The notes below the pieces were generated by a model. The model worked only from the letters and a program-made list of their open reading frames with translations, was not told where the DNA came from and searched no databases. The translations under genes and the position numbers were made by a program. DNA of 64,000 nt, taken from positions 16,375,653 to 16,439,652 of the forward strand of contig NC_134028.1 in NCBI RefSeq assembly GCF_964204645.1, in the 5' to 3' direction. This document shows positions 3,240-46,100 of this stretch, one piece after another; the first letter of the stretch is position 1, and each line of letters opens with the position of its first letter. The DNA comes from Tubulanus polymorphus. Lineage: Eukaryota; Animalia; Nemertea.

Positions 3240-3850
3240 TATATATTCGATGTGACGTTTAAATTCATTAAATAATTTTCCAATTTCTCTATTTCTTCAG
3301 AATGTGTTTGAATATTGTAATCCATTTATTCTTCTAATTTTATAAAACTTACTTTTACTCCTGAAAGACTAATTTTAGGTTATTCAAAATCTATTACTAA
3401 ATCCATTTTTCCCCATTTTTCAATAAATTTACTATAATCTTCTATTGTTGTGCCTTTAAAAAATCTAAATAAAAAAGCTGCAGGTCCAATTTTCCTACGC
3501 AATGTTTCTAATATTTCGATTGTACCTTTTATTTCTAGTGAATCAATATAATTTCTAACATTTTCCATATAAGGTTTATTTGAAATAGATTTAGTTCTTT
3601 AAATAGATTTTTTTACTCGTTGAGATTTATCATCAAAATATTCTGTTTCCAAAATATTTTTACTTAAATTTTGTTGATGTTTTTTTCGATTCAAGATATC
3701 TTTTAAAATTCGTTTTTGTTATAAATTAATTACAAATATTATTTAATTTCATCTTTTTTATATCCTCTAATTGTACTTTTCTTTCATCTGAATTTTTCAT
3801 GTCGAGATTGAAGTGATTTATCGATGTATTTTTACAATATGAAAATTAAT
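3240..3850 (-). pseudogene. N-terminal (terminal-protein region) fragment of Polinton pPolB
   Basis: MENVRNYIDSLE..IGPAAFLFRFFKGTTIE is homologous to MENVRNYIYSLD..IGPAAIEFKFHKGKTLE at 30440-30570. Confidence 0.7.
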
Positions 3851-24729: not shown

Positions 24730-25845
24730 TTTTTTAAGGTTATTTCATAAATTTATATTCATATGGAAATTGTAGTCTCAGTAATAATTTTGAACCTCTT
24801 ATTACTTTTTAATTTATTCATATATTCATCATGTAATTCAGTAGGTATAATTAATTTTCTTCCAATGATTGTTGCATAGATTTTCTATCTTTATTGTAGA
24901 ATAAAACTAAAAATCCAATGTTTTCTCTAAAATCTTTAACAATTGAATTATATGTTTGATTTAAAACCCATGATTTAAAACCCAAAATGTCTCCGAGAGA
25001 AAGCTAAATAGCATAGTTCACTTGCTCTAACTTTTGATTCATGTAAATTTGCACAATCATCTATAATGAATAATGTATTTGTTCCTTTATTAATATATAA
25101 TGCAATTTCTATACAATTATCTAAGTTATTCTTTACAGAAGTAGGATTTAATATTATAAATCTTTTATCTTTAAAAACTATATCTCAATTATACGTTTCA
25201 TTCATTTCATAAGTAGAATATTATTATATTATCAAAATGATTTTTTGACGCCTTATAAAACGTTACCATTATGAAACCTAAACAATGTTAACCATTCAGC
25301 GTCATTTTACAAACGACAGCCGTAAATCGATGTGCAAAACGTCACAGGTCTATGTGTACACAAATAAGCTATCTGGCAAAATATTATTGACATAGATGTA
25401 GAATGGCTTCCTTTGATTATATAATGACCTATATTTGAACGTCGAAATGTTATATTGCATTGAATATCATAAGAAGACGTATTGTAATAGTAAAGGATGT
25501 ATGATTATATCAGAAGCGGCAGGCATAAATAGAAATGATAAGTAAATCGGATTATTCGGTTAAATGGCGGATGTATACACGATTTGGAAGTCTGATATAA
25601 AAGTCAGACCCTGACGTGGGCATGCCGGTGGAATGACGAAGCTATCTACGATGTGTGTAGGGCCGGCGTGAATTTCATCAGCGGCTACAAGCGGTCAATA
25701 TGAAAATGTTTAAACATATAATTTCAATATCAAATTATTTTCTAAAATTAATTTTCTTGTTATAAATAGTTTCTAATAAATCTAATATGAAATACACACT
25801 CCAGTAACTAACATATTATCTGGTCCAAATATAAATAAATCTTTT
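24730..25845 (-). pseudogene. FtsK/A32-like packaging ATPase, interrupted by a ~470-bp insertion (~25247-25720)
   Basis: Walker B TLFIIDDCA..SELCYLAFSRRHFG..NQ.YNSIVKDFREN. Confidence 0.75.
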
Positions 25846-25846
25846 T

Positions 25847-26615
25847 TCATTTATTCTTTAAATTTTTACTAGATAAAATCCGTTCATTAAATTTATCATC
25901 ATACCCTTTATATTTCACCAAAGAATATTTCGTACCACGTAATGTTTTTGTTTTAAATACATTTTTTATTTTGTATTCTATCATCTGGATTTGGTACATG
26001 TGATAATTCTTGTTCATAAGAATAACCTTATATTTCTTCATCTTTTAGATTTATTTCTTATTTATAAACAAATTATTTTTTATTATTTAATATTATGTTT
26101 TTAATTTTAAATATTTCTTCAGTAAAATTTGGAGTATAACCTTTATAAATTTTTTTTCTTTATTTTTAGAAATTCTAACATGTTGTCCTATTTTAAATTT
26201 AGGTGACCCGAAATCAAGTGTAACAAACGCACCATATAAATTATTCCAAACTAGTTGTCAATTATCTTCTTTTCTAGCTTGTATAGGTTTCATACCAATA
26301 CTTGAATGTTTAGAATCATTATAACCTTTCACTAAATCATATAATACATCGATATATTTATATGTTCCATTAGCAGTAAAAAATTTCCACATTCTAGCTT
26401 TCAATTTTTTATTAAATCTTTCTATGATAGATGCTTTTTTATCTGAGTGTGTTGAAAAATTTTCTATTTTGTTATCGGATAATAATTTTTAAAATTCTTT
26501 ACCTTCATCAAATTGTATCTTATCTGGGATAACTTGTTTAAATATATTTTTTAATGCATTAGTTATTTCTATACCAGTTTTGTTTTTGATTGGAATTGAC
26601 CATGCGTATCTACTG

Positions 26616-26706
<91 letters not shown>

Positions 26707-26972
26707 CCAAAAATATCCTTTATTGTATTCTTCTAAGTTTTTCATATCAATTAAATCTGCTTGCCATTGTTGATCATTATATGAAACCATAACCTTTCTT
26801 CTTAAATAGTGTTTGTAAATGTTGGTTGATTTTGTAACCATAATTTCAATTTACTATATTTCATATTTTCATTATCAAATTTTATTTTATCCCATAATTC
26901 TGTAACACTAGAATATGATACTTCACTCTCTGGGTTATAATATAAATCTCTTAAATATTGTTCTTTTTTCAT
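25847..26972 (-). pseudogene. Polinton-type retroviral-like (rve) integrase with C-terminal chromodomain
   Basis: LYYNP.S..SYSS, QWQADLIDM, FSRYAWSIPIKNKT, QFDEGKEF, KASIIERFN, YN..KHSSIGMKP, LVKYKGYDDKFN. Disrupted by (TA)n and frameshifts. Confidence 0.88.
26619..26703. repeat. (TA)n microsatellite inside the integrase
   Basis: About 42 perfect TA units. Confidence 0.97.
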
Positions 26973-27543
26973 CTTATTTTAATCCATTAATAATAATTTC
27001 GATTTATTTTCAATGATCTTATCATTTGATTTTTTTTAGGTTAGTTTTTTTTTAGTTAGTTGAATTATTGTTGCATAAAGAATTACAATATCATATATGA
27101 ATAAATTAAAAAACTCAATTTGAATTATGTAATCTATAATCTATAATTATATAATTAATTCGTGAATATATTTATGATTTTTTAAACTCTTTGAATTTTT
27201 ATACTTTTTATTATATATTTCACAACACGTAATATTATTCAATTTATCTGAATTATAATATATGTTATCTTTTAATTCTATATATTTAATTTTACAAGTA
27301 TCGTAAAATTCTAATAACTGTTTTAATGAGTAAATTGAAACAGAAACCATTCCGGATATCATAATAATTAACTTAATGCTCTCTTGATATCTGTATATAA
27401 GATGTAATAAATTTAATATATTTTCGCTCATTTATTTATTAGATCAATTCACTAATCTGATTCAATAACTTTTTTATGAATTCACTGTGTATTTATTTAC
27501 TTTCAATTTATTATACAAACTTTTTATTAAAATTGATTTCATA

Positions 27544-27696
<153 letters not shown>

Positions 27697-27705
27697 TATT
27701 ATTAC

Positions 27706-27860
27706 AGTAATAGGGTAAGTGTTGTTTCATATCAGAGGTTGAAAGGTTGTTTGTGAGTGAAAAATAAAAAAATAAATTCGAGCGTGTAAGAATTTATTTT
27801 TTATTTTTTATGAGCTGGACCTTTCGACCTCTGGTATGAAAAGACACTTACCCTATTACT
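27706..27860. repeat. 155-bp terminal hairpin of remnant B
   Basis: AGTAATAGGGTAAGTGT...AATTC-gagcgtgtaa-GAATT...ACACTTACCCTATTACT. Confidence 0.88.
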
Positions 27861-27869
27861 AATCACTCG

Positions 27870-28110
27870 TCTAAGCGCATACGAGCCCGATGCTCCTCGG
27901 TTTGACAACCTTCACACTGAGTTAAAAATATGGCGTGGAAGGTGGATTGGAACAGACGAAACAAAGTGTCCGAAATAACCGTGTGCCACCTTGAAGGCAT
28001 GTTCGAAATATTCCTTGTCAAGTATTCATTGCAGATCGCTTGCGTAATTCCGGTAACTAGTTGCGAGGCAGAGCGATCTTTCTCTACTTTTCGGCGTGTG
28101 AAACTGTGTT
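27870..28110 (+). pseudogene. hAT transposase C-terminal dimerisation domain fragment
   Basis: LQIACVIPVTSCEAERSFSTFRRVK motif. Confidence 0.7.
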
Positions 28111-29595
28111 GCGTTCTAGATGAGAGAGGAGCGCCTAGTGGCGCTCGTTTTAGCGAACAGTAGGTCACAGTCGTCAGGTATCAATTATGCGGAAAACGTC
28201 CAGCATTTTATAAACCAGAAGCCGCGTCGTTTGTTTTCATATACGTGTGAACAGATATGAACTAAACATGATATTAAAGGTTTCGTTATGAAGTAACGTA
28301 CATGTACTAGTCCTGTCTCGTATGGTATAGTATATAATTCGTCGGCGCCCAGGCTGGAACGCGAGCCTGGAAATAACTATGCCTGTAACCTGATACAGAT
28401 CAGGCATGGAATTGTCATGACGGTTATGGCAGCCACTTGGTCAATTTTGCTGAATGGGTAGCCAGACCAGGAAATTATCGGGAAATATGAGAATAGGACC
28501 AGTATACTATTCGTATGGTGTTGCCATCTGATGTTGATGTCGATGCTACACGCATTACACACATTACACTAAGACGCTTTGACCATGAACGTAGGCATTT
28601 AACTAAAGTTTACGTACATTCAGTTAGTTTTTTTTCCTGGGAATGGCTTTCAATATACGGGTAATATGTACAACTAAGCATAGTTTACATTAAATGAATG
28701 GATAGTAAATTTACCTTTCTAGTGCTTTGGATACTTTCATTCGGGGTAATTCTAATCTGAGTTTCAGCTGTCCAACCTAAAGTATTAATAATAAATGATT
28801 AAGCAAAAAAGTAGCTCTTTTCGCAGTCGCGAGTATCACAGAGACAAACTGTGACGCAATTCTGGTATGTTCATTATATTTTTCATTTATCTGAACAACA
28901 CATTAAAGAGGATTATCCAGCTTTTTCATTCAGACGATTTTAGATGTGACGGTTAAGGCGTGCATCATAGGCGACTATTTTATTCAGCATTCAGCGTCAG
29001 CAGTAAGGTAATCTACAAACATTTATTCCTTGGCGAGCCATACACGTCAATAGCTCATTGAAGATAAGTTTTACATGTGCACACGCTAGTCCAATAAGAG
29101 TTAATCGTATTAAAAAAACGCATCGATATCACCGATATCAACAATGTAAGTGGAAAAAACAAAGATGGTAGGCAGAATTGATAATGGAAATGGTGGTAAA
29201 AACGCAAGTATCAAAATCAAGTCATGATTATTGAATCATTTTATTTACACGTTCCAATCGATTTCGACTCATATTGTCGAGTCCTTTTTCAGGAAATGAA
29301 TATATACGTGGTATACTATCAATAACAAGGCAATTCGATACTACGTATCTATGTCCCCCACGATAGCCAGTATAGCCAGTATCAATGACCCCTGAAGACA
29401 CTGATCTTCGGTATAGAAAAATGATGAATGTATCCAGGGATAACCATACTATGAAATATCATTTTCCTGCTATGAATGGTTATTTAAGAATTGAGTTTAC
29501 AGGGTTTTAGGCAAACGGCGTCTACCAACCTTGACCTTTGACCCTAGAACTCCAAAATCACTAATGCACATCCTCTTCCCAGGGGTAATCATACT

Positions 29596-30104
29596 AGTAT
29601 TAGGGTATTATTTGTTCTATACCAAAGGTGGAACGGTCGAAAAATAAATTCTCGCACACTCGTATTTATTTTTCGACCATTCAACATTTGATACAAAACA
29701 ACTAATACCCTATTACTTCTACATAATCACAAGTCTCATAATTTACAAGCCTCAACACGTTGAGTATTGCGTAATACATGTTGATTCTAGATGGATGGTT
29801 CTAGAAAACTACATTAGCCAATCACAGTTGAGTATTACACTATCCAATCACAGTTGAGTATTCCCAGCCAATCACAGTTGAGTATTCCCTATTACTCTAT
29901 CCAATCACAGTTGAGTATTCCCTATTATTCTAGCCAATCACAAGCCTCATAATTTACAAGCCTCAACACGCAGCTGGGTTTTCCCCACTGTCGAGTAGTA
30001 TAAATAGGAGGGACGCACCACGTGGCGGGACGCGTTGAGAGGTAAGTGTTATGTTCAATTTTAATAAAAAATATCTTTTTAAAATAGAGAGTAGTAAGAA
30101 GTAC
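29596..30104 (+). repeat. Left TIR (122-bp terminal hairpin, CCAAT array, TATA, first codons)
   Basis: Reverse complement of 40298-40832 apart from scattered substitutions and one repeat-unit indel. Confidence 0.93.
29818..30006 (+). promoter_or_regulatory. Putative inward-facing promoter in the left TIR
   Basis: Five CCAATCACA units, then TATAAATA (29999-30006) 45 bp before ATG 30051. Mirrored at 40395-40612. Confidence 0.55.
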
Positions 30105-33100
30105 TACTGTTCAACATGTAAAATTAATATTGATAAATCTCATAAAGCAAGACACAATAAAACTAAATCTCACTTAGAAAATAAATTAAAGTGAGAATAT
30201 AAAGATGATATATTAGAAAATAAATTAGATGAATTAAAGAATGAAAAAGAAATATATAAATGTGATACATGTAATCAATCATTCAGTGAACAAAGATATT
30301 ATGAACAACATTTAAAATCTAAAAGTCATATTAGAAATATGAATAATGATATTTTAGGTGAAGATTATTTTGATAATGATTGTATTAAACCGAAGACAAT
30401 TAAAAGAATAAAAGATACTCTAAATAATAAGAAATCATATATGGAAAATGTTAGAAATTATATTTATTCATTAGATAATAAAAAAGAAATAGAAATAACC
30501 GAAGCATTCAAAAGTGATATTGGACCAGCTGCAATTGAATTTAAATTTCATAAAGGCAAAACATTAGAAGAAAATAAAAAGCATTTAGAAAATATGAAAA
30601 ATATTATAAGAATAATTACAGATGTTGAATACCCTATAATTAGTATATCTTCTAAAGTTAAATTTATAAAATCTAAAGATAAACCAATATATAATATAAA
30701 TTCTCATTCACAACATATAATATCTAAACAACATATAGATGATAGATTAGATAAATGTTATAATGAAATAAAAAGTAAAATAGAAGAGAAATATTTTGAA
30801 GGATCAGGTTTAATATTTGATGAAATAATATTTATGACTTTACATGTATAGAATACAAAATATAATAAGCTAACTGAATCAAAACCAATTGATGAAAATA
30901 ATTTATTATATTATAAAGATAATAATATAAATGGATCAAGTTATATCAAATTACCATTTAAAACTAATGCTGTAATAAATGTACAAAATGAAGATGATAA
31001 ATGTTTTCTTTGGTCAATTATAAGTTGCTTACATCCAACAGAAGATATTACACATAGTTTTAGATTGACAAATTATAAAAAATTTGAAAATAATTATAAG
31101 ACAGATAATCATCCTGTTAGAATTAAAAATATCCCAAAAATAGAAAGAGATAATAATATAAAGATAAATGTGTTTGATTTAGTCAAATTACCAAAAACAA
31201 AAGGTAACAATATAAAACATCACACATTAGAACCTTTATACCTATCAAAAGATTATGATTCAAATGATGTTATAGATATATCATATTATGGGAAACATTA
31301 TATGTATATTAAAATTGATTTATTTTTTAAATCAGAAAATGGTTTTGATAATAAGATATATCTATGTAGAAAATGTATAACTTAATTCAGATAGTGCAAA
31401 AAATTGCATTATTAAATCATAAACAATTATGTGAAAATCATGATTATTGTAAAAAATGTCTTACCAAATGAAAAGGATAAATTATTAGAATTCAAAAAAT
31501 ATAATTACAAGAATAAAGTACCATTTGTAATATATGGAGATTTTTAATCATTAAATAAAGAATTAACTGATCAAGATAGAAAAGAAATATATCATAAAAT
31601 AAAGAAATTAAATTCTATTGAAAATGATGTAATTGATTATTCAGATCCTCTAATAACAAATACCATTGAAAAGATTCATCGAATGCTGCAGCTTTCGGGT
31701 TATATATAAAATCTGATTACCCAGAACTAATTAAAAGTGAATATTATAATTACAGAAATGAAAATGTTATCAATCATTTTTGTGACTTATTAATTGAATA
31801 TGAAATAAAATTTAATAAATTGTTAAATAAAAATAAAGAAATAATTATGACAGAAGATATAGAAGAATTTGAGTTTGCTGATAAATGTTATCATTGTGAA
31901 ACGATATTTAATTATAAAAAAGTTAGAGACCATGATCATTTGAATGGAAAGTTTAGAGGCGCAGCGCATGAATATTGTCACTTACAAGCTAAGAAAATTA
32001 ACTTTGTTCCAGTAATACTTCACAATTTATCAGGGTATGATGCTCATTTATTTATCAAACAGTTATGCCATAAAATAGAAGAAATCAATAATGAAATAGA
32101 AAGAGTAAATTCAAATAGATCAAAAGATAAAATACCAACATATAAATTTAAAATGTTAGCTAAAACATCTGAGAATTATATATCTTTCCAATTTGGATGC
32201 CTAAGATTTATAGATTCATATAGATTTTTAAGTAGTTCATTAGATAATTTATCAAAATCATAAGTTGATGATGAATTAAAGATATTAAAGCAACACTATC
32301 CAAATAATGATGATTTTCAATTAATGAGATATAAAGGAGCAATTCCATATTCATTTTATAAATCACATGATGATTTCAATATAACTGAAATATTAAAAGA
32401 ACAATTCTGTGATGAATTAAAAAATGAATATGTTAAAGATGAAGTCTATGATAGAACATTGAATATTTGGAATCATTTTGAAATGAAAAATCATGGACAA
32501 TTAGTAGATTTATATTTAAAATCAGATGTATTATTATTAACTGATATATTTGAAAGGTTTAGAGATGTAAATCTAAAATATTTTAATATTGATCCATGCC
32601 ATTGTTATTCTAGTCCAGGTTTAACTTGGGATTGTGGTTTAAAATTTACAGATATAAAAATGGTTTTGTTAACAAATATAGATCAATTATTATTATTTGA
32701 AAAATCTATAACATGAGGTGTTTCGGGTGTATTAGGCGATAGATATTTCAATGTAAATGATAACCCTGGATATAAGTTATTATATGTAGATGCAAATAAT
32801 CTATATGGTTGGGCAATGATGGAACCTCAACCTTATGGAGTATTTGAAATAACTGAAGTTTTACAGCATGAAAATAATGATACATTTGATTGGAAGAAAA
32901 GAAATCTAGATATTGCGGATGATTCAGATACTGGTTACTTCTTTGTAGTAGATTTAGAATACCCTGAAAATATTAATTTTAAATCTAGAAATCTAGCATA
33001 CTGCCCCGAACATAAAACTGTTACACACGAAGAATTTTCAAATTATCAATAAGAATTAAACCCGAAAATCATATTCATACAGAAAAATTAAAGGTAACTC

Positions 33101-34119
33101 AGGAAGATAAATATAATTATGTAGTGCATTATAGAATGTTAAAATTCTATTTGAATCAAGGAATGATTCTAAAAAAAGTACATAGATATATTTCGTTCAG
33201 TCAATCTAAATGGTTAGAAAAATATATAGATTTTAACACCAAATAGAGAACTTAAGCTAAAACCGATTTCGAGAAAGATTTCTTCAAACTAATGAATAAT
33301 GCATTCTATGGTAAGACTTGTGAAAATATTAGAAATAGAAATGATATTGAGTTAGTTAGCAATGGTAAAAGGATAAGGCATTTACAAACATATCCTAAAT
33401 TTATCGGTACCAGAATATTTGATAAAAATTTAGCTGCAGTTAAAATGAGAACTTCTATGAAATTTAATAAACCAATTTATGTTGGTGCTTCAGTTTTAGA
33501 AATATCAAAATTATTAATGTATGAATTTTACTATAACGTTTTACAACCTTATTTTGGAGAAAAGCATATAGAAATCTTATATTTTGATACTGACAGTTAC
33601 ATATTAAAGATTAAAACTAATAAAATAACAGATGACTTAAAAACATTAAAACATAATTTTGATTTCGGTAATTATCCTAAAGATCATGAATTGTTTAACA
33701 ATGATAATAAAAAGGTGCCCGGTAAATTCAAAGATGAATTAGGAGGTGAAGAAATGATAGAATTTATAGGTATTAGATCTAAAATGTATTCATATAAAAC
33801 TAAAACTCATGAAGCTAAAAATTTAAAAGGAATTACTAAAAGTGTAGTAGAAAAGAAAATTCATTTCAAAGATTACATCAATTGTATATTTAATGAAGAA
33901 GTTAGAAAACAAAAGATGAAATGTTTAAGATCTGAGTACCACGAGATGTTTATTGAAGAAATAGAAAAGGTTAGTTTGAACCCATTTGATGATAAAAGAT
34001 ATATTCTGGATGATGGTATACACACAGTTGCTTATGGTTGCAATTTAGAAGAATATCTAAAACTTAAAAGAGAAGAAACAAAAGAAATGGAAATAATGAA
34101 CAGGATTCTAAAATGTTAA
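30051..34119 (+). pseudogene. polB: Protein-primed family B DNA polymerase with N-terminal C2H2 fingers, terminal-protein/OTU-like region and endonuclease VII insert
   Basis: EGSG, GSSYIKLP, NEDDKCFLWS, YGDF, VRDHDHLNGKFRGAAH, HNLSGYD, FIDSYRFL, YLKSDV, YVDANNLYGWAM, KLMNNAFYGK, YFDTDS, KMYSY, KGI. Multiple stops and frameshifts. Confidence 0.93.
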
Positions 34120-34148
34120 TCAATTTTTAATACAAATATATATTATAA

Positions 34149-34766
34149 ATGGAAAATACACAAACTATAAATATAAACAATAAGAAATGTTGGAAGTGTA
34201 AAATAAATAAATCATTATCAGAATATTATAAAGATAAATATTCTAATGATGGTAAGCAAAGTTACTGTAAAAGCTGTACTAAAGTTGTTAATAAATCATT
34301 TCATGAAAATAACCCAGAATATATGAGAGATTGGAAAAAATATAACCGTGAACATATCAATAATTATTAAAAAGTAAAATAAAATTCAGATCCATTATTC
34401 AAATTATCAAAAATTCATAGATCTAGTTTGAACAGAGTTTTCAAAAATTATATAAAATCTGATAGATCAATTGGTTATTTATGGTGCTCTATAGAATTTT
34501 TTAAAGCATGGATAGAATATCAGTTCGATAATAATATGACATTTGAGAATCATGGAGAATATTGGGAGTTAGATCATGTTATCCCATTATCATCAATAGA
34601 AGATGAATCTGAAATAAAAACAATATGTAATTGGAAGAATATTCAACCTTTATCGAAAATAGAAAATAGAATTAAACATGATAAAATTGATAATGAATTA
34701 TATAATAATCAAATAATTAAAGCTGAAAGATTTATACAATTATGGAATAATATAAAAGGAATATGA
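34149..34766 (+). pseudogene. HNH/endonuclease VII-like protein with N-terminal CxxC..CxxC finger
   Basis: KKCWKCK..YYKDK..DGKQSYCKSC; CSIEFFKAWIEYQFDNNMTFENHGEYWELDHVIP..NWKNIQPL...ENRIKHDK. Confidence 0.72.
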
Positions 34767-34949
34767 TTGAATATCGAGAATCCGAAATGACTTATCTGGA
34801 CAATTTATTTGTTCCTATAGATAGACAAAAGTAGTGAGATATTAAAATCATATTCTTCTATTTCTTTTCAAAGAAGATTTTAAATAGAATTCAAATAAAA
34901 AATATTTAAAAAACAATAACTTCAACTATATAATGAATTCTATTATATT

Positions 34950-35190
34950 TTTATAGGTATTAGATCTAAAATGTATTCATATAAAACTAAAACTCATGAA
35001 GCTAAAAATTTAAAAGGAATTACTAAAAGTGTAGTAGAAAAGAACATTCATTTCAAAGATTACATCAATTGTATATTTAATGAAGAAGTTAGAAAAAAAA
35101 AGATGAAATGTTTAAGATCTGAGTACCACGAGATGTTTATTGAAGAAATAGAAAAGGTTAGTTTGAACCCATTTGATGATAAAAGATATA
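34950..35190 (+). repeat. 241-bp direct duplication of polB segment 33763-34003
   Basis: Near-identical sequence from TTTATAGGTATTAGATCT to GATAAAAGATATA. Confidence 0.92.
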
Positions 35191-35562
35191 GAAAATTTAG
35201 ATAATTGTATAAAAATAGCAATTGATATTTACAAAGGATCTAATACATTATTCATCATAGATGATAGTGCTAATTTACATGATTCAAAAGTTAGAGAAAG
35301 TGAACTATGTTATTTAGCTTTCTCTGGGAGACATTTTGGGATAACAACATGGGTTTCAAATCAAAAATATAATTCAATTGTTAAAGATTTTAGGGAAAAC
35401 ATTAGATTTTTAGTTTTATTCTACAATAAAGATAGAAAATCTATGCAACAATCTTTGGAAGAAAATCAAATTATACCTACTGACTTACATGATGAATATA
35501 TGAATAAATTAAAGAATAATAAAGGCTCAAAAATTACTTCTGACGCTTCAATTTCCTTATGA
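35191..35562 (+). pseudogene. Packaging ATPase, C-terminal half only
   Basis: TLFIIDDSA..LAFSGRHFGITTWVSNQKYNSIVKDFRENI. No Walker A motif. Confidence 0.8.
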
Positions 35563-35584
35563 ATATAAATTTATAAAATAAGGC

Positions 35585-35840
35585 ATTTAAAGCATTTACG
35601 TATTAGATACGTATTAAGTACGTATTAGATACGTATTAGATACATTAATACTTAAAACCCCTTTTTAAAAATGTTTTATTTATTTTAATTTTTCAACTAA
35701 TATATTTTTATTTTTTCAACTAAGTTTGAAAATAATAAAGGTTATTTAGATTAATACATATTAGATACATAAATACTTAAATACGTATTAGATACGTATT
35801 AAATACGTATTAGATACCTAAATGCTTAAAACCCCTTTTT
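35585..35840. repeat. Short repeats (GTATTAGATAC)n plus duplicated CTTAAAACCCCTTTTT at the convergence of the two gene blocks
   Basis: Two clusters, at 35598-35666 and 35755-35840. Confidence 0.7.
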
Positions 35841-36695
35841 TATTAACGATTATCTTATACCATTTTCAACTATTATTTTATATGAATGTGAGATTAACAT
35901 CATTTTCATCATCATCATCATCCTCCAATTCATCATCAGACTCTAACAATCTATTAAACCTATCTACCGGATCATCATAAGTTTCTTCATTATAATCCTT
36001 TTTCATCCTATCTACCGCAACATCAATAGTTACTACTTTACGTCTCGTCCAATCTGTATCTATATAATCTTCATTATCAATATGCTTATCTGTAACTATA
36101 TTTTCCTTATTTTCTTTCTTAGTGTTTGGTCTTAATATTTTATTTACAATGTTTGATCATCTTTACTGTGTTCAGGTACCTTAGATAAAAATTCACTTAA
36201 TAAATCTTTATATAAATCTTTACCATTTACTTTTTTATTTGAAACAAACTTTGTTACATATCTTAATGAGTGTTCTATAAATTCTCTTAAACCAACGCGT
36301 TTTATAACATTAATAATATGTACAAATGTATTCATATGGTTAATTCAATTTGATTGGCAGTTTGAAAATTCACCTTTACAATAACCACAATAATTTCTAT
36401 TTTCACTATGATCTAATATTATTTCATTATTATATGTAGAAGGTAAAACATTATCAGATGTAGGAGGTAAAACATTATTATCAATTTCATTACTTACATT
36501 ATCAACAACTTCACTTTTATTATTATCGATTTCTATTAGTTTAGTATTATAATTTTTGAAAATAGGATCAAATATCAAAGCTATATTACAAGGTATTACA
36601 TAATATAAGCCATCATTATTTTCATGTTTATCAATTTATGGAATATGTTTATATACTTTACCTGCCTCCATTTATTATAGAATTTTTTATTAAAA

Positions 36696-37509
36696 CTAAA
36701 ATTTTAATACATAACACTATTCAATTGAGAATTTACAATATTTAATTGCGCGTCAGATATAATATAAATGTGCATTTTGAAATTTAAACTTCCTTTTTTC
36801 TCTTTCATGAATAATTGTATCCCATCTTTTCTATTTTGTAGTTTTTTCCCAGAACCATGTAATGAATTATCCTCTGTTGTTCTTAGATCTAAACATAATG
36901 CATATTTATTACCAGTATAATAATCAATTTAATTATTATTACAATTTTAGCAAATGTTATTTCCAATATAATATCTTCTTGAATCGCATATTTATATAAA
37001 GGTGCATTATTATTTACCAATTCAAAGTCTAATGGAATTTTATATTTGCTTTCATAAATCTTTTTTATCAAATTATCTGTAGCATTAGTTATGATTGCAT
37101 TATTAGCTTCTGATCTTAATTTATCATGGTTTTCTGATTGGATGCCTTGAAATATCATATTACTTCCATTTTCTTTTGTTAACCATAAATCTTTATAATG
37201 CATAAATAAATTATAATCATCTAATGAAAAAACTGTTTCTGGTCCAATCTTTACAATTAATTTTTCAATCAAATATCTTCCAACATTATCGACAACATAA
37301 TTATTATCATGGCCAGATACTTTTATATCAGCAGATAAATAAATACGATTTGGAACATAAAAAGTATTTTTGTTACTCGAGGGATTCTAACATATAACGT
37401 TTCATCGGGATTAATATTAGATTATGGGTAATTATATGATGAGATCTCTCTGCTTTAATAGCATTAGATATTCTTGAATTCTTAGAAGGATTTATGTAAC
37501 TTCCCTCAT
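36696..37509 (-). pseudogene. Major capsid (hexon-like, double jelly-roll) protein, internally deleted
   Basis: ITHN..INPDETLYVRIP..VPNRIYLSADI..NVGRYLIEKLIVK..YKDLW..GIQSEN..YKIPLDFEL and C-terminal DNSLHGSG..HIYIISDAQLNI resemble capsids of invertebrate adintovirus-like Polintons (recognised from memory). Confidence 0.7.
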
Positions 37510-37684
37510 TTATTTAACAAAAAAATTAATTATTTATTTTTCATCATATTCACTAATCCAAAAATAATTGCACTTACAACTGTAATTAAGAATAAAATAA
37601 AATATTTTTATTAAAATCTATTGCAGGAATATTATATTTAATTGATTTATTATATTGAAAAGCTTTTAGAAAACTATCTACCAT

Positions 37685-38134
37685 TCATATACTAAAAATT
37701 TTATAATTTATTAATTCTTTTAATAATTTATCTTGTTCTTCAACTGTTATATTACCATTTAAACGTATTATCTTATCCAATGTATTTTTAAATTTATTAA
37801 TTTCTTTTATATTAGATTTTATTTTTTCTTTATAACTTTTTATATTTAATTTTGAACTTATGCCGGTTAATACAATTGAACTTAAACCTAAAGCTCCAAT
37901 TGAGATAGCTAAAGGTGTTAATGGTGAGAATAATGCTAAAAATGTTATTACAGAACTAATTGTTACTGAACCACGGATAATAAAATAATATATAATTTTA
38001 GATTTTAAATGTTTTTTCTTTTTAACTTTTAAATCATTTTCAAATTCTAATATTTGTTTTTCCAAATATAATTTTGATATAGTTTTATTTATATCATGAG
38101 GAATAATATCAATATTATCAACTTTATCATCCAA
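37685..38134 (-). CDS. Two-helix hydrophobic protein with coiled-coil flanks, unknown function
   Basis: Intact 149-aa ORF with a homolog at 603-950. Confidence 0.65.
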   Translation of the reverse strand: MDDKVDNIDIIPHDINKTISKLYLEKQILEFENDLKVKKKKHLKSKIIYYFIIRGSVTISSVITFLALFSPLTPLAISIGALGLSSIVLTGISSKLNIKSYKEKIKSNIKEINKFKNTLDKIIRLNGNITVEEQDKLLKELINYKIFSI

Positions 38135-38153
38135 TTATTTAGAAAAGAAATTA

Positions 38154-38591
38154 CTAATTAGTAAATTTATATGCAACAAATATAACAATTACTGTTCCAC
38201 CTAAAATCCAAATTATTTCATATTTCTGTTGTTCTCTACTTGGTGTATAATAATCTGATAATTTAGGTTTGTATAGATGTAATTTTTCTTTATTTGTTAC
38301 TGCATTATATAAACTCATAGCTTCATCAACTGATTGAAAATCTCTATGTGTAATTTTCTGGTTATATAATTCTTTGTTAATATAGTCCATATAATTTTGT
38401 CTCTTCTCTATATTCTTCTGCTGCTTTATTATACTTTTCTAACGATAAGTTGTGTCTTCTTTGTTCTGCTAATGAACTATTTTTATCAGATGCTATATAT
38501 CAATATATTATATCAATAGATACCCACCACCAGTAAATGCCAAAGCGTTAACTATTGCCGATCCTATAATAGTTATAACTGCAGATGCCAT
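38154..38591 (-). pseudogene. Small virion protein with amphipathic/hydrophobic N-terminus and C-terminal TM helix (putative membrane-lytic protein)
   Basis: MASAVITIIGSAIVNALAFTGGGYL..EQRRHNLSLEKY..MDYINKEL..KPKLSDYYTPS..QQKYE plus a TM segment. Frameshifted. Confidence 0.6.
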
Positions 38592-38609
38592 TTATTTAGT
38601 AAAAAAATT

Positions 38610-39190
38610 ACGCATTTATATAGGAGGAATATATTTTTGTTTTTCCAAATAATCAATTGTTAAATTAGATAAAGTAACTGCTAACGTTTATTTTAAAATA
38701 TCATTTATATCAAATCTATCAACATTAACACTTCCCATTTTGAATACTTTTTTTAATACCATTGAATAACCAACAGTTCCAACTGATAATAATGCTCCAT
38801 TATATAACCCAGTTATTATCCATTTATTATCACTCATTTATCTATCAAAAAAATCACCTTCAAAATATTTAGTTATCTTATTTATGATTATTTCAACATT
38901 TATTTCATTACTACTTTTGTGATTATCAGATATTTTAGTTAATATTTGTTTAATATCAATAATAATAATCTTCATCTAATTCATAAAATCTTAAAGACTC
39001 TAATTAAATCAGTAATCTTTTCTACATTAAAAGTTTCATTATTTATTGTTCTTTTATATTCAAATCTTGTTTCATTAGAAAATGCAATATTCTTAATATG
39101 TGTTATTACATCATTAATGTTAAATTTCATTTCTTTCTCACGTTTAAAATCAAATCCAAAGCATATACTCGGTCCAACAGTTTTATTCAT
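38610..39190 (-). pseudogene. Conserved Polinton-family ORF of unknown function
   Basis: Homolog at 1010-1579 (GPSICFGFD.KREKEMKF.INDVITHIKN). Confidence 0.6.
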
Positions 39191-39206
39191 TTATATAGTG
39201 AAAAAA

Positions 39207-39948
39207 TTATTCTTTACATCTTATAACTAATTCAAAAATTACAGGAAAGTTATTCAAATCAATTAAATATCCATTATGATTTCTTATTTCTAATTTAAAA
39301 TTGTTAAAATGTGGAATGCATGGTTTGAAATCACACTCAGCTAAATTATAATTTATTTGAGTTCCAAATTGTTTAACATTTTTCAATGGTAAAATATTTA
39401 ATATACTTCAATTACAAATTGTATCTTTAGTTGCTTCAAATGTTTTTTTATGATCAATTAAATTGCAAGAAATATAAAAATGTGCAAAAGGCATTATATT
39501 TGGTGTAGAATCAACATTTGCATGAAGTTTATTTGGTGCAATTCTTAATGGTTTTCTCACTATAAATTTATGTTGTTCTTCATTAGCTAACTTTATTCTT
39601 AATTTATTATTATTATCACTTTTTAAAAATTTAATTCCAAATCCAGCAGCTGCGCTCATTTTTGTTTTAGCTTTTCTATTAATTTCCTGCACTAATGTTT
39701 CTGAATAACCCTGGTCTTAAAAATAGATGATACCATTTATTATTTCTCCTAACGTGAATCATAAAAGCATTATGATCAAGACTTTCATCTGATATATTAT
39801 AAAAAGAATCACATAACCTTACATTTACTAATTTTAAATCTACACAATTCTTAAATTCTCTATCTAATCGTACTAGTAAATTATGTGATTTATAATTTGT
39901 AAGCCTTCTTGAATCAACAAATATTCTGTATTCTTTTAATTCTACCAT
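39207..39948 (-). pseudogene. Minor capsid (penton-like) protein
   Basis: YRIFVDSRR..FYNISD..FYISCNLID..DFKPCIPHF..NGYLIDLNNFPVIFELVIR. Frameshifts. Confidence 0.68.
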
Positions 39949-39962
39949 TTATTTTACATATT

Positions 39963-40352
39963 TTATTCGAAATCTATTTCATGGTGTTCTTTTTCATTCT
40001 TACCTTTATATATGGAATAGAAATCACCAGAACATAATTCTTCTAAATCTTCACTTGATAATCTATGAAATCTATCTGGTAAATATGTTCTGAATTTATA
40101 TTTATTTCCTTTTAATCCTTCATATTCTAAGTGAATAACTAATTTATCTCCATATTTGTTAGTAACTGTATCAATATTTTTAATTAAATATTTCTTATGA
40201 ATTGTTAATTCTGTTAACTTCTTAAATTTATAATCTACTGATTTAGCATTTGTGATACCTTTTATTCTATCTAGAAATGATTTGTTGTTCTCACTGTGTA
40301 CTTGTTTACTACTCTCCATTTTAATAACATATTTTTTATCAAAATTGAACAT
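39963..40352 (-). CDS. Small beta-rich protein starting inside the right TIR (possible OB-fold ssDNA-binding protein)
   Basis: Intact ORF FKKLTEL..KYLI..V.NKYG..LVIHLE..FRTYLPDRF with a second copy at 44984-45217. The fold is an inference. Confidence 0.6.
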   Translation of the reverse strand: MFNFDKKYVIKMESSKQVHSENNKSFLDRIKGITNAKSVDYKFKKLTELTIHKKYLIKNIDTVTNKYGDKLVIHLEYEGLKGNKYKFRTYLPDRFHRLSSEDLEELCSGDFYSIYKGKNEKEHHEIDFE

Positions 40353-40832
40353 AACACTTACCTCTCAACGCGTCCAGCCACGTGTGCGTCCCTCCTATTT
40401 ATACTACTCAACAGTGGGGAAAACCCAGCTGCGTGTTGAGGCTTGTAAATTATGAGGCTTGTGATTGGCTAGAGTAATAGGAAATACTCAACTGTGATTG
40501 GATAGGTTAATACTCAACTGTGATTGGATAGAGTAATAGGGACTACTTAACTGTGATTAACTGGGAATACTCAACTGTGATTGGATAGGTTAATACTCAA
40601 CTGTGATTGGCTAATGTAGTTTTCTAGAACCATCCATCTAAAATCAACATGTATTACGCAATAATCAACGTGTTGAGGCTTGTAAATTAAGAGACTTGTG
40701 ATTATATAGAAGTAATAGGGTATTAGTTGTTTTGTATCAAAGGTTGAATGGTCGAAAAATAAATTCGAGTGTGCGAGAATTTATTTTTCGACCGTTCGAC
40801 CTTTGGTTTAGAACAAATAGTACCCTGTTACT
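40298..40832 (-). repeat. Right TIR with 122-bp terminal hairpin (40711-40832)
   Basis: Inverted copy of the left TIR, followed by the TSD CATACT. Confidence 0.93.
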
Positions 40833-40838
40833 CATACT

Positions 40839-41760
40839 ATGAAATAGCACTGTTCCGTTATCAATGGTTCTTCTTGAATCGTTTTTACAAGGTTTCATAT
40901 GAATGATATCTAGTGACCTTGACCTTTTTCCCCAACATCAAAAGGGCACATCCTCTCCCTAGGGGTAATCATGCGATGTAATATCATTGTATTGCTATCA
41001 ACAGTTCTTTCTGAATCACATTCACGACACAACGTTTCACATGAATGACCTGAAGTGACCTTGACCTTTGATCCTTGGAGCCCAGAATCAATAGGGCACA
41101 TCCTCTCCCTAGGGGTAATCATACTACGTAATATCATGGTCCTGCTATCAACGGTTCTTCTTGAATGGCGTTCACAAGGTTTCACATGAATGACCTGTAG
41201 TGACCTTGACCTTTGGTCCTTTGACCCCAAAATCAATAGGGCACATCCTCTCCCTTGGGGTAATCATACTACGTAATATCATGGTCCTGCTATCAACGGT
41301 TCTTCTTGAATGACGTTCACAAGGTTTCACATGAATGACCTGTAGTGACCTTGACCTTTGGTCCTTTTTCCCAAAATCAATAGGGCACATCCTCTCCCTA
41401 GGGGTAATCATACTACGTAATATAATGGTTCTGCTATCGACGGTTCTTCTTGAATCACGTTCACAAGGTTTTAAATGAATGACCTGTAGTGACCTTGACC
41501 TTTGATCCTTGGACCCCATAATCAATAGGGCACATCCTATCCCTAGGGGTAATCATACTACGTGATATCATGGTCCTGCTTCCAACAGGTCTTCTTGAAT
41601 GACGTTCACAAGTTTTCACATTAATGACCTGTAGTGAACTTGACCTTTGGTCCTTGGACCCCAACATCAATAGGGCACATCCTCTCCTTAGGGGTAATCA
41701 TACTGTGTAATATCATAGTCCTGCGATCAACGGTTCTTCTTGAATCGCGTTCACAAGCTC
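40839..41760. repeat. ~146-bp tandem array (about 6.5 units)
   Basis: GTGACCTTGACC (last copy a variant) at ~40913, 41054, 41200, 41346, 41489 and 41635. Confidence 0.93.
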
Positions 41761-42559
41761 ATGCGGACGGACGGAGGCGGATACCAAGTCCCCCGCTCGC
41801 GGCCTACGCCGCGCGGGGGACAATAACTTGTTGACGACGTTTACATATCCCAGTAGATATATGGCAGAATTCTAAAGTGAGAATTTGTAATCCACTATTC
41901 CTGAACCAAAAACCGTTCAATTGAAACCTGCAAGGCTGACTCATAATTTAGAGGGTTGACACTAAAAAAGCCAACGCGCGTAGTACCGCACTCCTAGTAA
42001 GGTGTAACCGGCTGGTTGTTGTATCGGCAGGCTGTCTGGGGAACTAGCATTTACACCAGCGGTACAGGATTCGATCCATCAGGAACAAAAAGGCAGTTAA
42101 ACCTTATATGTACAATCTTTATTGCATCCCGGAATGAGATTGATTATCATAACTTAACATAGTCTTTATATACAGAATCATGAGTATAAAGTGAGAACTA
42201 GGTGTCAGACAAGTTGTAGACATCAGGACTCACAAACTTACACCTGGAGACATATTTGAGAGACTCAAATTAATTAATGATGAGCACTAATTACTTCGAA
42301 TACATATTGAGTAGTCTGACATGTTGATTACGATAAAGCACATATTGATACTATATTCATAAGTTATATGTCATTATTAATACTATAATTATTATTATTA
42401 AGCATTTCATGTAGTTAAAGATATGAAATATTATGAACCATTCGATATGACATTGTAGATATATATGATAATGAAATATGCAACTCATATCAGGGTGACA
42501 AAGGCACTAAACATAGTAACAAAAGCACAAAACCATACATGTTTATTGATTATGGGGAG

Positions 42560-45500
42560 CATGAAAGATGTGGCGGGAGAAATAAAACTAAAACTATAAG
42601 TAAACAGCAATAATCAATAAGAAATTTATTAACAATATGCACATGTGTCTGAAAAATGTTAACCTATCGTATTCGCCGACGACACGACTGCATATATTAG
42701 TGGAAGCTAAATTGATTATCTAATACAAAGCAATGAAAATGACTTGAATATACTACAATATTGGTTTACTGCTAATAATCTACTGTTTACATTTCTGAAA
42801 TAAAGGACCAATGGTCCAGTGGCTCACCAAACCACCGTGTGGAGTCAAAAATTTGTCATGTATGGCTACTAGGCTACTAAAGATTAATTTCATTGAAAAT
42901 AAAATAAGAAAAATATATCATAAAGGACCTAATTTTGGTCAGTGATAAGTGACTTTTTAACGAGAATGAAATCTTCGGAAAATTGATTTTGGGAATTTTT
43001 GTCTCAACAAACTAATATTCATAATTCTAATACATTCATAGAATGGCATATAAAACAAATAAAACCATTTTTTTGACCCGGCAAAATGAGAGCCTGGGTT
43101 TCAATCGGAGGTTTTTCGTTATCATACGGCTCAATTAGGACAGAAGCTCCCAAGTCTATGCAAATTTGAGGCCAGTGCCGGTTACTGACGAAATAAAGTT
43201 TATCGACTGACATTGTTTTTAATAATTTCACTATAGGATTGCTTTAATTAGGCAGGCAAGCTTACATCTTCACTCGGAAGGGTTGTTACGCGCGAGCTGC
43301 GCCTTGGCGCGCGTTATCTATAACTGATACATACACGCAGTGAACACGAGATTATGAGGCGATTTTACCTACGCCACTGTACACGACTGTTTTCAACGCG
43401 AACGCTCATCACTATGCCGCCATTGACAAGATAATACAAATAATCAGGCTCCAAAACGGATCGTTAATGCGAACGTCAAAATGACTTCAATTAATGATGA
43501 TAAAACTATTATTCCAGTCGTGTATAAATATCAGAATCATCTTAAAAAATTCGATGACGTCATGATGGAGTTCCAACCGGGTCAACACAAATTATATATA
43601 CCCGAGATTTTGGGGGGTTTCGTCTTTGAAAGCCCATAACTACCGAACAAAGCGTTGGATCATGACGAGGTAAAGTTCTTCCGACACAATTAGCATTGAA
43701 TTTTCACACGTGTTATTTTCGACAATCAAAGATGCTACTTGAAAAAACGTGCTCAAATAAATCGAACTTTTTACACTTTTTGGTTACCCACGGCTTTCAC
43801 CTTTGCGCACCATAAAGAAAAACAGATTATGGAATATATTCTGGCTTAATCCGTTCAATTCGCCCATTAGTAATCAAATTACAGGCTAGTAAATTGCGTT
43901 TGAGTGTTAGTCAGCCAGCCAATCATGGAAAATTCGACGATCACGGCATTTTTTGTTACAGCTTGGCATCCGGGCTCATTTGATAGCAGAGTATGTGGGC
44001 TACCATGTGTGGTGGATGCCTTTTATAATTTTTTGTTTTTTGGCCTACAGGGGGCGTTAAAGTCAGACATTTTGAAATTAAAACATCTTCATTTTCATTC
44101 GTCAAGGAAATACACTTTAAACTACTTTTGCTAAATAATTCGAATATCTCATCTTAGGTTTGGAGTAATTTTACAATCTAAACCTTTTCTGAGTTGGGGG
44201 ATTGCAGTGCATATAGCGCAACGTTAATTTTATGCATACATTCATTTGTTACCTAGTTACAGCAGCAACAATCGTGTAATATTCACTTGAAAATAGCAAT
44301 TTCATATGAAATATTCATTTTAAAGGTTATTAGCTCAAATAGTGATGTTGTTAATGTTTTTTGTTGATTATATTGATATTTCTTTAAACTTACTTATAAC
44401 TCGTATGTACTTGGTCAATATCGGGATTAACTGTTTATTGGTTTCTATGGTAACAGCAATTCAAATCTGCGTTCTTCATCCGTCAGGTACCGGTATTTTG
44501 GGCGTTGGGTCTTTCGTGACATTCCAAATGTTCTCAAACTTGCCTAAAGTCTTCGGCCATGTATTGGGCCGCTTATTACTACGTCTTGCTAACAATTGAA
44601 TTGCAACAATGGTAACCATTGTTGCAATTGCAGAAAAATCGCGTAATTTGTCCACATTCTTGACGTAACCAATGGATTAATTGAGGATGTGTTTATCTAA
44701 AACCATATCTAATCTTTTTTCTTTAAAATTTTAAAATCATTCCATATTCGTTCACGAGTAAATTATAACTAAACGTTGTCACCATGGTAACCATACATTA
44801 TATGCGTTTATTTGAAAAAATTCTTTTTTTCCCATAAGATTTTCTCCCATATCTTTTGAACCCTTTCACCGAATTTGTCGAATGAAAGCTCATTTTTGAG
44901 GCAATTCCTTGAATTTTCCTTACTTCTAGGGGATGATACTAGTTAACCTTTAGTAAAACTAATATTCCCTTAACTGCAATTTACTATTCCCAACATTTAT
45001 ATTTATTTCCTTTTAATCCTTCATATTCTAAGTGGATAACTAATTCATCTCCATATTTGTTAGTAACTGTATCAATATTTGTAATTAAATATTTCTTATG
45101 AATTGTTAATTCTGTTAACTTCTTAAATTTATAATCTACAGATTTGACATTTGTAGTATCTTTAATTATATTTAGAAATGATTTGTTGTTCTCACTGTGT
45201 ACTTGTTTACTCTCCATTTTAATAACATATTATTTTATTAAAATTGATTTTAGAAGTCATTAGATATTTTAAGAGTAATAGGGAATAAGTTGTTCTAGAT
45301 TAAAGGTTGAGAGGTCGAGTGAGTAAAAAATGAAAAATAAATTCGAGTGTGCGAGAATTTATTTTTCATTTTTTACTCATTCGACCTCTCGACCTTTGAT
45401 CTAGAACAACTTATTCCCTATTACTGACATAGGCTCGCAGCCTATGTCAACAAAATCAATAGGCCAACAAAAGTAATTCTTTTTTAACCAAATGGAATTA

Positions 45501-46100
45501 GAAATATTAAGAATCAAGATTATACGATAAAACTAGACAACGAGGAACTTAATTTAGTATCATCAACATGCTTCCTTGGATTACATTTAGACGAGATTTT
45601 TGATTTTAATTTACACATTAGCAAAATCTGCACCACAATAGATAGTCAAATTCATTTACTTAACTAGGTTAAACATTTTGAACCTACATACTGTTAAAAA
45701 CGACTTTATGTCAGTCGTATCCATTGTCATTTTACGTACTCACTGATCTCATGGGGGCCCACTTATCTTAAAAAGAAACCTGAGCAGATAAGAAAAATTT
45801 CAGAAAAAAGCCGTTCGAATTATTTCTAAATCAGCATACAATAGCCCAACAGATTCAATGTTTCGCACATTAGAAATTCTAAAATTCAAAGACATGATCC
45901 ATTTAGAAATACTAAAACACGCATATCGGCTTATCAACAATGAACTACCAGCACCGATCATAGACTTATTTCAAAACAATTCTGTATACCATCAATACAA
46001 TACTCGTCAGTACAATCATCCCCGAATCGCTCACTATTAGAAAAGCAGTTATTATAAAAGTTTCCTCAAATTAATTCCAATAATGTGGCTAAACTCCAAT
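42560..46100 (+). mobile_element. Decayed CR1-group LINE RT, interrupted by a ~2.65-kb insertion (~42800-45450)
   Basis: INNM..VFADDT at ~42630-42690, continued by FLGLHLDE..HISKIC and QKKAVRII..MFRTLEILKFKD at 45470-46040. Confidence 0.6.
44984..45425 (-). mobile_element. Polinton-like remnant D: 152-bp terminal hairpin plus truncated terminal ORF
   Basis: The ORF is ~90% identical to 39963-40352. The hairpin at 45274-45425 has only three mismatches. Confidence 0.85.

Follow-up and report, generated by a model that had tools for sequence, protein, structure and literature searches.

Long fold-back hairpins form the ends of a decayed Polinton family of Tubulanus polymorphus that keeps terminal-protein motifs in its polymerase

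In this study, we analysed 64,000 nucleotides of the nemertean Tubulanus polymorphus (contig NC_134028.1 of assembly GCF_964204645.1, forward-strand positions 16,375,653 to 16,439,652; hereafter the window, in which coordinates are counted) and found a decayed Polinton whose ends, like those of two related remnants, are long fold-back hairpins. The main element occupies positions 29596-40832 (about 11.2 kb) and is AT-rich, with a GC content of about 0.22 compared with about 0.40 outside. Its terminal inverted repeats (TIRs) of about 510-535 bp, at 29596-30104 on the plus strand, reaching the first codons of the polymerase gene, and at 40298-40832 on the minus strand, are 90% identical over 536 alignment columns. 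The element lies in a host array of a 145-bp satellite, which runs on to 41757. It splits one monomer, and a 6-bp target-site duplication (TSD), CATACT, abuts both edges (29590-29595 and 40833-40838), whereas the other monomers, representing the empty site, show a single CATACT. The tips, AGTAAT...ATTACT, are of the 5'-AG...CT-3' type, one base off (AGT)2. Thus the element has the TIRs, the 6-bp TSD, the tips, the protein-primed family B polymerase (pPolB) with fused terminal protein and vOTU, and the packaging ATPase by which Polintons/Mavericks are recognized.

The polymerase, an HNH/endonuclease VII-like gene and the ATPase are encoded on the plus strand, and the convergent block holds the probable capsid gene and a terminal open reading frame (ORF). 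The polymerase gene (30195-34119) is interrupted by stops and frameshifts and comprises zinc fingers, a terminal-protein domain, vOTU, an exonuclease with an endonuclease VII-like insert, and the palm. The HNH/endonuclease VII-like gene follows in two pieces (34149-34763; Pfam HNH_4 with an E-value of 0.009, below the cut-off, and phrog_1035 with 7e-8). A duplicate of the polymerase 3' end (34950-35190, plus strand, 99% identical to 33763-34003) lies at the rearrangement that truncates the A32-like packaging ATPase, which is without its 5' part (35167-35562; Pox_A32, E-value 4e-4); this truncated piece resembles an ORF of a distant locus (L031). A region between the convergent blocks (35597-35883), in which an 11-bp unit forms two arrays within a duplicated 110-bp segment, may serve bidirectional termination. 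On the minus strand, the pieces at 36707-37386 belong to a conserved 415-aa family, with intact relatives of 343-420 aa, which we take from motif likeness to be the probable major capsid protein; a Capsid_N match was weak and found in one of four relatives (E-value 0.002, below the cut-off), and no solved-structure match was found for the family. The small terminal ORF (39966-40319, minus strand) starts inside the TIR and has three relatives at 62-66%. It gave no match under an E-value of 0.001, and its structure model, for which a single-strand-binding protein was considered, had a pLDDT of 49. No adenovirus-like maturation protease was detected among the stop-free pieces scanned of the decayed copy, nor an integrase in the rearranged 29596-40832 copy. 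The TIR interior of this long-ended subfamily (29810-30018, plus strand), which we take to be promoter-like, is predicted to contain tandem CCAAT-containing units, extra copies of the terminal 10-mer and a TATA-like box. In the interior repeats at 29810-29942 and 40460-40610 the extra 10-mer copies adjoin CCAAT motifs, and the tip and the promoter may share a binding site.

Two remnants in the window end in related hairpins. The second remnant (24740-27545, minus strand) holds a small ORF, a broken rve integrase (25983-26850) and an ATPase piece (24740-25135). The third remnant (44987-45273, minus strand) consists of the start of the terminal ORF, 93% identical to 40094-40348, and a short spacer, without the long TIR interior. 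Judging from their sequences, we treat the main element and both remnants as one decayed Polinton family; the assignment of the 24740-27860 remnant is based on the common hairpin and on the ATPase, which is 89% identical to that of the main element.

Palindromes were present where the original prediction, made from the DNA letters alone, had placed them: 29596-29717 and 40711-40832 (122 bp each) at the ends of the main element, 27706-27860 (155 bp) in the second remnant, and 45274-45425 (152 bp) in the third. The 122-bp hairpin is composed of two 56-nt arms and a 10-nt loop (29652-29661 on the left, 40767-40776 on the right), and at both ends its outer edge is flush with CATACT directly outside. 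The hairpin of the second remnant (plus strand) has arms of 74 and 71 nt around a loop at 27780-27789, and an (AT)n tract lies between it and the common inner junction; that of the third (plus strand) has 71-bp arms with 68 Watson-Crick pairs and 3 G.T pairs around a loop at 45345-45354. Arm sequences vary between copies, the remnant hairpins being 68-72% identical to the 122-bp type, yet each is self-complementary, as had been claimed, and all are predicted to fold. The predicted sequence details hold in general form, but the left end begins AGTATTAGGG, with one mismatch, and the 27706 palindrome contains a bubble in which about 10-12 nt are unpaired, its loop being GAGCGTGTAA. Owing to this bubble it escaped a whole-window hairpin scan, which picked up the other three. 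The DNA fold energies of the four hairpins were -33 to -70 kcal/mol against -8 to -11 kcal/mol in 40 dinucleotide shuffles per hairpin (z -11 to -26), and the loop motif had four matches in the window versus 0.00 in 100 shuffles. Relative to the element, the loop points the same way at all four ends, but these count as only three independent ends because the left and right TIRs are copies of each other. The first 10 bases of the inner arm are identical to those at the true 5' end. In the predicted fold the terminal 3' base is paired flush with the base at which the inner arm begins, in the manner of parvovirus termini, in agreement with the predicted flush 3'-OH.

Next to this geometry, the pairing itself appears to be maintained between subfamilies, for which the evidence is good but thin. 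Among the four ends (three independent), 9 of the 55 pairs carried compensating changes on both sides, a number reached in 0 of 500 shuffles, and slid controls gave 0-2 pairs. The extra 15-18 nt of the longer types are present in both arms (arm lengths 56, 71 and 74 nt), and the outer 10 pairs and the 12 loop-proximal pairs are nearly invariant. Mirrored variants in the reads (7 pairs among the 40 rows listed) were considered as further covariation and rejected, since a read from one arm can align to the other.

The mismatches of the hairpins are polarized. On the strand whose 3' end forms the element border, the transition mismatches were 22 G.T and 0 A.C, in addition to 11 other mismatches and 3 gaps; the left hairpin has 4 G.T and 0 A.C (minus strand) and the right hairpin 7 G.T and 0 A.C (plus strand). 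Outside the bubble, the G.T mismatches fall on 10 distinct sites (two-sided p about 0.002), and at all four ends this strand folds 4-8 kcal/mol better than the other. One wobble is common to all three subfamilies, and its T was kept in 698 of 849 reads. Since decay in the duplex has no strand preference, the bias points to a single strand, DNA or RNA, acting through selection or single-strand deamination. The polarity falls on the strand whose 3' end was predicted to fold, and folding at the 3' terminus is supported. CpG decay was rejected as the source of the wobbles because the host shows no CpG depletion (0.95), the majority of the sites are non-CpG, and A.C would be expected equally often.

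The flush position of the hairpins, their surroundings and raw reads support the view that they are the structural ends of a Polinton family. All four share one orientation, and on the inner side of each lies the same junction motif, which surrounds the start codon of the terminal gene. Genome-wide counts were made from the raw reads of one run (X3; 1,934 million letters), which has the same species label as two element-bearing runs, loose ends being counted in the top six rows per run. The stem-loop core was covered to a mean depth of 2056, the terminal ORF to about 809 and the long TIR interior to 118, which gives 2.5 cores per adjacent terminal ORF where 2 are expected. As one unique flank had a depth of about 2, the number of cores is roughly 10^3, an order of magnitude. 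Beyond the outer edge of the 45274 hairpin, unrelated sequence is entered by 185 reads with an agreement of 0.37. Ten reads join the terminal ORF straight to the hairpin, which shows that the short end is a multi-copy subfamily; since gene and hairpin join directly in this subfamily, what stays constant at the end is the hairpin. Reads also leave the reference beside the core (365 + 203 before it, 502 + 395 behind it), and on visual inspection one side is largely the reverse complement of the other. Some of these joints return to the same arm after unplaced letters, which suggests a longer-stemmed subfamily nested in the same arms, and further arm variants are present in the reads. On the other side, some reads stop near the inner edge of the hairpin and an excess of a quarter or more of the cores is unassigned, so that solo copies may exist. 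As a separate observation, 206 reads of another arm type continue beyond the terminus with the four letters that open the flank of the main copy, hinting at a target preference or at co-amplification with the satellite (window 40806-40838, 29431-29595 and 40833-41757). Unlike this group, the flanks of 45274-type hairpins are diverse in the reads.

The family did not abandon protein priming, as far as can be told from sequence, since the terminal-protein fold, the predicted serine and the vOTU motifs are retained. Intact relatives of the polymerase were found at 79-84%, and named ones, at 39-50%, come from insects, a spider, a sea spider, a brittle star, a sponge and a sea anemone; together with the Bel/Pao retrotransposons in the neighbourhood, these relatives suggest an animal host. 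The N-terminal piece (30339-30848) gave a model with a pLDDT of 83, in which Gly-Ser-Gly follows the second long helix and precedes the last strand; its serine codon is at 30804-30806 on the plus strand. The model best matches the little-finger domains of Y-family polymerases (Z 7.5-7.7, rmsd 2.7 over about 90 residues) and adintovirus/MELD polymerases. The same fold and the position of the linking residue have been described for Polinton terminal proteins in the accessible text of that study (10.1101/2024.03.18.585575). The predicted linking serine is found in 49 of 50 relatives, the vOTU Cys and His in 50 of 50, the exonuclease and palm motifs in 49-50 of 50, and the endonuclease VII-like Cys/His residues in 47-50 of 50. 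The serine and the vOTU Cys and His are all present in the window copy.

Our preferred reading, a tentative one held with somewhat less than even confidence, is that the hairpins are 3' snap-backs that rebuild a duplex origin so that the terminal protein primes the second strand. Protein-primed strand displacement would free one strand, and its last 56-74 nt would pair with the inner arm. The folded end would then be a duplex origin, and from it the second strand could be primed by the terminal protein, which is predicted to be intact. This is the geometry proposed for the end-to-end panhandle of adenovirus and PRD1, here without pairing across at least 11 kb. Priming on the folded end would copy the hairpin in its original orientation and give no flip/flop, and the fold would shield the 3' end too. 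The ability of the strand to fold is the only step of this model that is not inferred. Such a model would explain the flush position, the 3' polarity, the invariant tip, the dispensable TIR interior, the retained terminal protein and the single orientation.

Several points weigh against this reading. Of the 10 wobble sites, three are almost confined to the window copies (the other letter is found in 269 of 283, 295 of 299 and 220 of 266 reads) and may be decay; the remaining seven give p about 0.016. RNA folding or single-strand deamination fits the G.T excess equally. Two-sided changes can arise by arm-to-arm copying without selection, and with only three independent ends related sequences can beat a shuffle control. 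The match of the terminal-protein fold is modest, with Z under 8. Distant Polintons have terminal-protein motifs and their few checked ends are without a long hairpin, so hairpins are not needed for protein priming generally. Finally, a flush fold-back 3'-OH is a good primer for any polymerase, which makes self-priming hard to exclude.

Self-primed or hybrid priming, suggested by the original prediction, is possible, but we do not favour it and regard it as unlikely, though to be taken seriously. Here the folded 3'-OH would be extended inward, and the resulting hairpin-closed duplex would be opened by an encoded nuclease; two endonuclease VII/HNH-like modules are indeed encoded. This accounts for the flush position, the polarity to the 3' strand and the invariant tip, but it predicts flips unless resolution is asymmetric. 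Symmetric resolution inverts the hairpin in half of the products, as at ends of the adeno-associated virus (AAV) type, whereas asymmetric resolution, as at the left end of minute virus of mice, would evade the argument. Flipped isomers, which the original prediction had proposed to look for, were seen at none of the three independent ends and not among the read rows listed, a weak test with short reads. Likewise, no strand-change joint fell at the hairpin border among the 15 + 15 joints listed, short reads being weak on palindromes; the joints near A-tracts were considered as flips and rejected, since they reflect arm-length variants. The poor agreement among the 185 reads leaving the outer edge, the retention of the terminal protein with its predicted serine and vOTU residues, and the failure to detect an HUH Rep among the stop-free pieces scanned also stand against self-priming, while the same model appears in the Fig. 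4D legend of a preprint on Halocafeteria (bioRxiv 10.64898/2026.07.28.741278). Both chemistries might be combined, which we think unlikely: the terminal protein would prime at duplex ends, the 3' hairpin would self-prime on the displaced strand, and asymmetric resolution by the element's own endonuclease VII/HNH module would keep one orientation. If true, such a Polinton, present in about 10^3 genomic copies, would stand as a living intermediate between two modes of end replication, the adenovirus-like and the parvovirus/poxvirus-like. It is distinctly unlikely that the palindrome is instead a signal for excision or processing, extruding as a cruciform or folding single-stranded at the host junction and being cut by the endonuclease VII-like domain, the HNH protein or the integrase. 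The four-way junction would fall exactly on the element border, the stem base and the loop are conserved, and the endonuclease VII-like Cys/His residues are kept in the relatives. However, a cruciform needs both strands folded, which the one-sided G.T bias weakens, and the same endonuclease VII-like domain occurs in distant Polintons whose checked ends are without long hairpins.

The inner arm repeats the terminus in inverted form, so the hairpin could be a by-product without own function, an old snap-back duplication kept symmetrical by polymerase template switching. Arm-to-arm copying gives matched insertions, and accidental annealing is named as an alternative in the accessible part of the same preprint (bioRxiv 10.64898/2026.07.28.741278). 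Copying would erase mismatches, yet one wobble persists in three subfamilies, and the loop and the stem base are conserved while the TIR interior has been lost or replaced; this explanation is improbable. We consider it quite improbable that transcripts running outward from a promoter in the TIR fold into an RNA hairpin acting as a terminator, decoy or small-RNA source. A G.T (G.U) bias is a classic RNA signature and the long TIR contains promoter-like repeats, but there is no reason for an RNA stem to stop at the last base of the element, Rfam gave no match in 27000-46000, and none of the element-bearing runs is RNA, the search having covered DNA only. The original prediction would have yielded to an independent palindromic miniature inverted-repeat transposable element (MITE) found mostly away from Polinton ends. 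A MITE or mini-Polinton sitting at these ends by chance is very improbable: all four hairpins adjoin the same inner junction motif in one orientation, none of the four in the window has a 6-bp duplication of its own, and the TSD spans the whole element. Both hairpin borders do resemble element ends, the arms diverge faster (68-72%) than the adjacent gene (93%), and there are the reads that stop near the inner edge and the ratio of 2.5; the depth excess is small, however, and divergent subfamilies are undercounted.

The hairpin ends are real, family-wide and structurally constrained. At present, genome exit and replication start of Polintons rest on a racket/panhandle model, which is a proposal. 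A strand-polarized hairpin together with a retained terminal protein makes that model testable with short oligonucleotides and one polymerase. Terminal palindromes extend beyond elements without pPolB, which weakens the view that they simply replace protein priming.

Other features of the window concern the remnants and their neighbours. From its end inward, the second remnant reads hairpin, small zinc-finger-like ORF, integrase and ATPase; the main element has pPolB, HNH and ATPase in this place. The remnant would be a deletion derivative or else an arm without a polymerase. It is broken up by two long (AT)n tracts, at 26619-26703 (within the integrase) and 27547-27693 (just inside the hairpin). 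A fourth remnant (491-2580 and 3368-3580) is 72-85% identical to 37601-39952, includes an inverted piece of the polymerase 5' end and has no hairpin within the window. Bel/Pao retrotransposons lie at 6078-9727 and 19974-24341, the second with an open pol frame of 1455 aa.

For comparison, we used 29 distant pPolB loci (L001-L003 and L011-L036, of which L002 and L026 are one contig). Two of the 29 start with an AGT-type tip and three more have TIRs at contig ends. Folding of these termini gave a comparable long terminal hairpin at none of the five checkable ends (z +1.3 to -3.5), a small control in which assemblies may have lost tips. Hairpin pattern scans gave no stretch in viral contigs, none in genome contigs, and seven matches in metagenome contigs, none with the loop or Polinton genes; no loci of close relatives were found with profile P0007 or the capsid alignment. 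Three metagenome contigs (L004:4455-4594, L007:26-145 and L010:605-751) have inverted repeats with the same 10-mer at the arms, with neither Polinton genes nor a loop match, and in L004 and L007 the likeness extends past the 10-mer.

In the known systems, fold-back ends and protein priming are distributed differently. Parvovirus and AAV termini are imperfect fold-backs of 120-250 nt with a flush 3'-OH; in the Tubulanus element no HUH Rep was detected among the pieces scanned and no flip/flop was seen, and it integrates with a TSD and has its own pPolB. Streptomyces telomeres are palindromic 3' ends of terminal-protein replicons, but bacterial and without pPolB. The CTXphi attP and integron attC sites are single-strand folds, made strand-specific by G.T pairs, that serve as recombinase substrates. 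Bidnaviruses, in which pPolB is joined to parvovirus genes, are described as having ends that form no such hairpins (PMC4061559, accessible text). As in adenovirus and PRD1, a displaced strand would regain a duplex end for protein priming, but there the two genome ends pair together, whereas here each end could pair with itself; in the available text, direct evidence for the panhandle is said to be lacking (PMC11886824). With Polintons/Mavericks of the adintovirus type the family shares TIRs, 6-bp TSD, AGT...ACT tips, the fusion of terminal protein, vOTU and pPolB, and the ATPase, with an rve integrase in the sister remnant (PMC8097293 and 10.1101/2024.03.18.585575, in part). Known tips, as given there, are commonly (AGT)2 or (AG)3, and here AGTAAT. 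In the accessible text of the vertebrate Maverick survey only 6-bp tip motifs are described, and the words "hairpin" and "palindrom" were not found (PMC8097293). Casposon TIRs have some internal palindromes, according to excerpts, and the accessible parts of papers on Gezel-14T, the entomopoxvirus-associated Polinton-like virus (PLV) and cryptomonads describe no such PLV ends; 10.1101/2022.05.25.493380 was rejected as a precedent because it deals only with protein beta-hairpins.

The closest likeness is in the protist Halocafeteria seosinensis, where virophage subtypes 1, 2, 5 and 6 and PLV subtype 4 have palindromes within the TIRs adjoining the TSD, together with an rve integrase (bioRxiv 10.64898/2026.07.28.741278, in the text available). 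Hairpin priming is proposed there, so the claim that such ends and such a model had no prior description does not stand in full. These palindromes occur preferentially with non-pPolB replication genes, and in that respect the claim holds. Literature searches, with subscription papers and Repbase entries outside their scope, found no description for animal pPolB Polintons. The palindrome of Halocafeteria subtype 5 is 52 nt, whereas those reported here are 122-155 bp or more, stand beside a pPolB that keeps terminal-protein and vOTU motifs, and show compensation and strand polarity. What is new here is therefore the presence of long flush hairpins, with strand polarity, in a pPolB family that bears the terminal protein.

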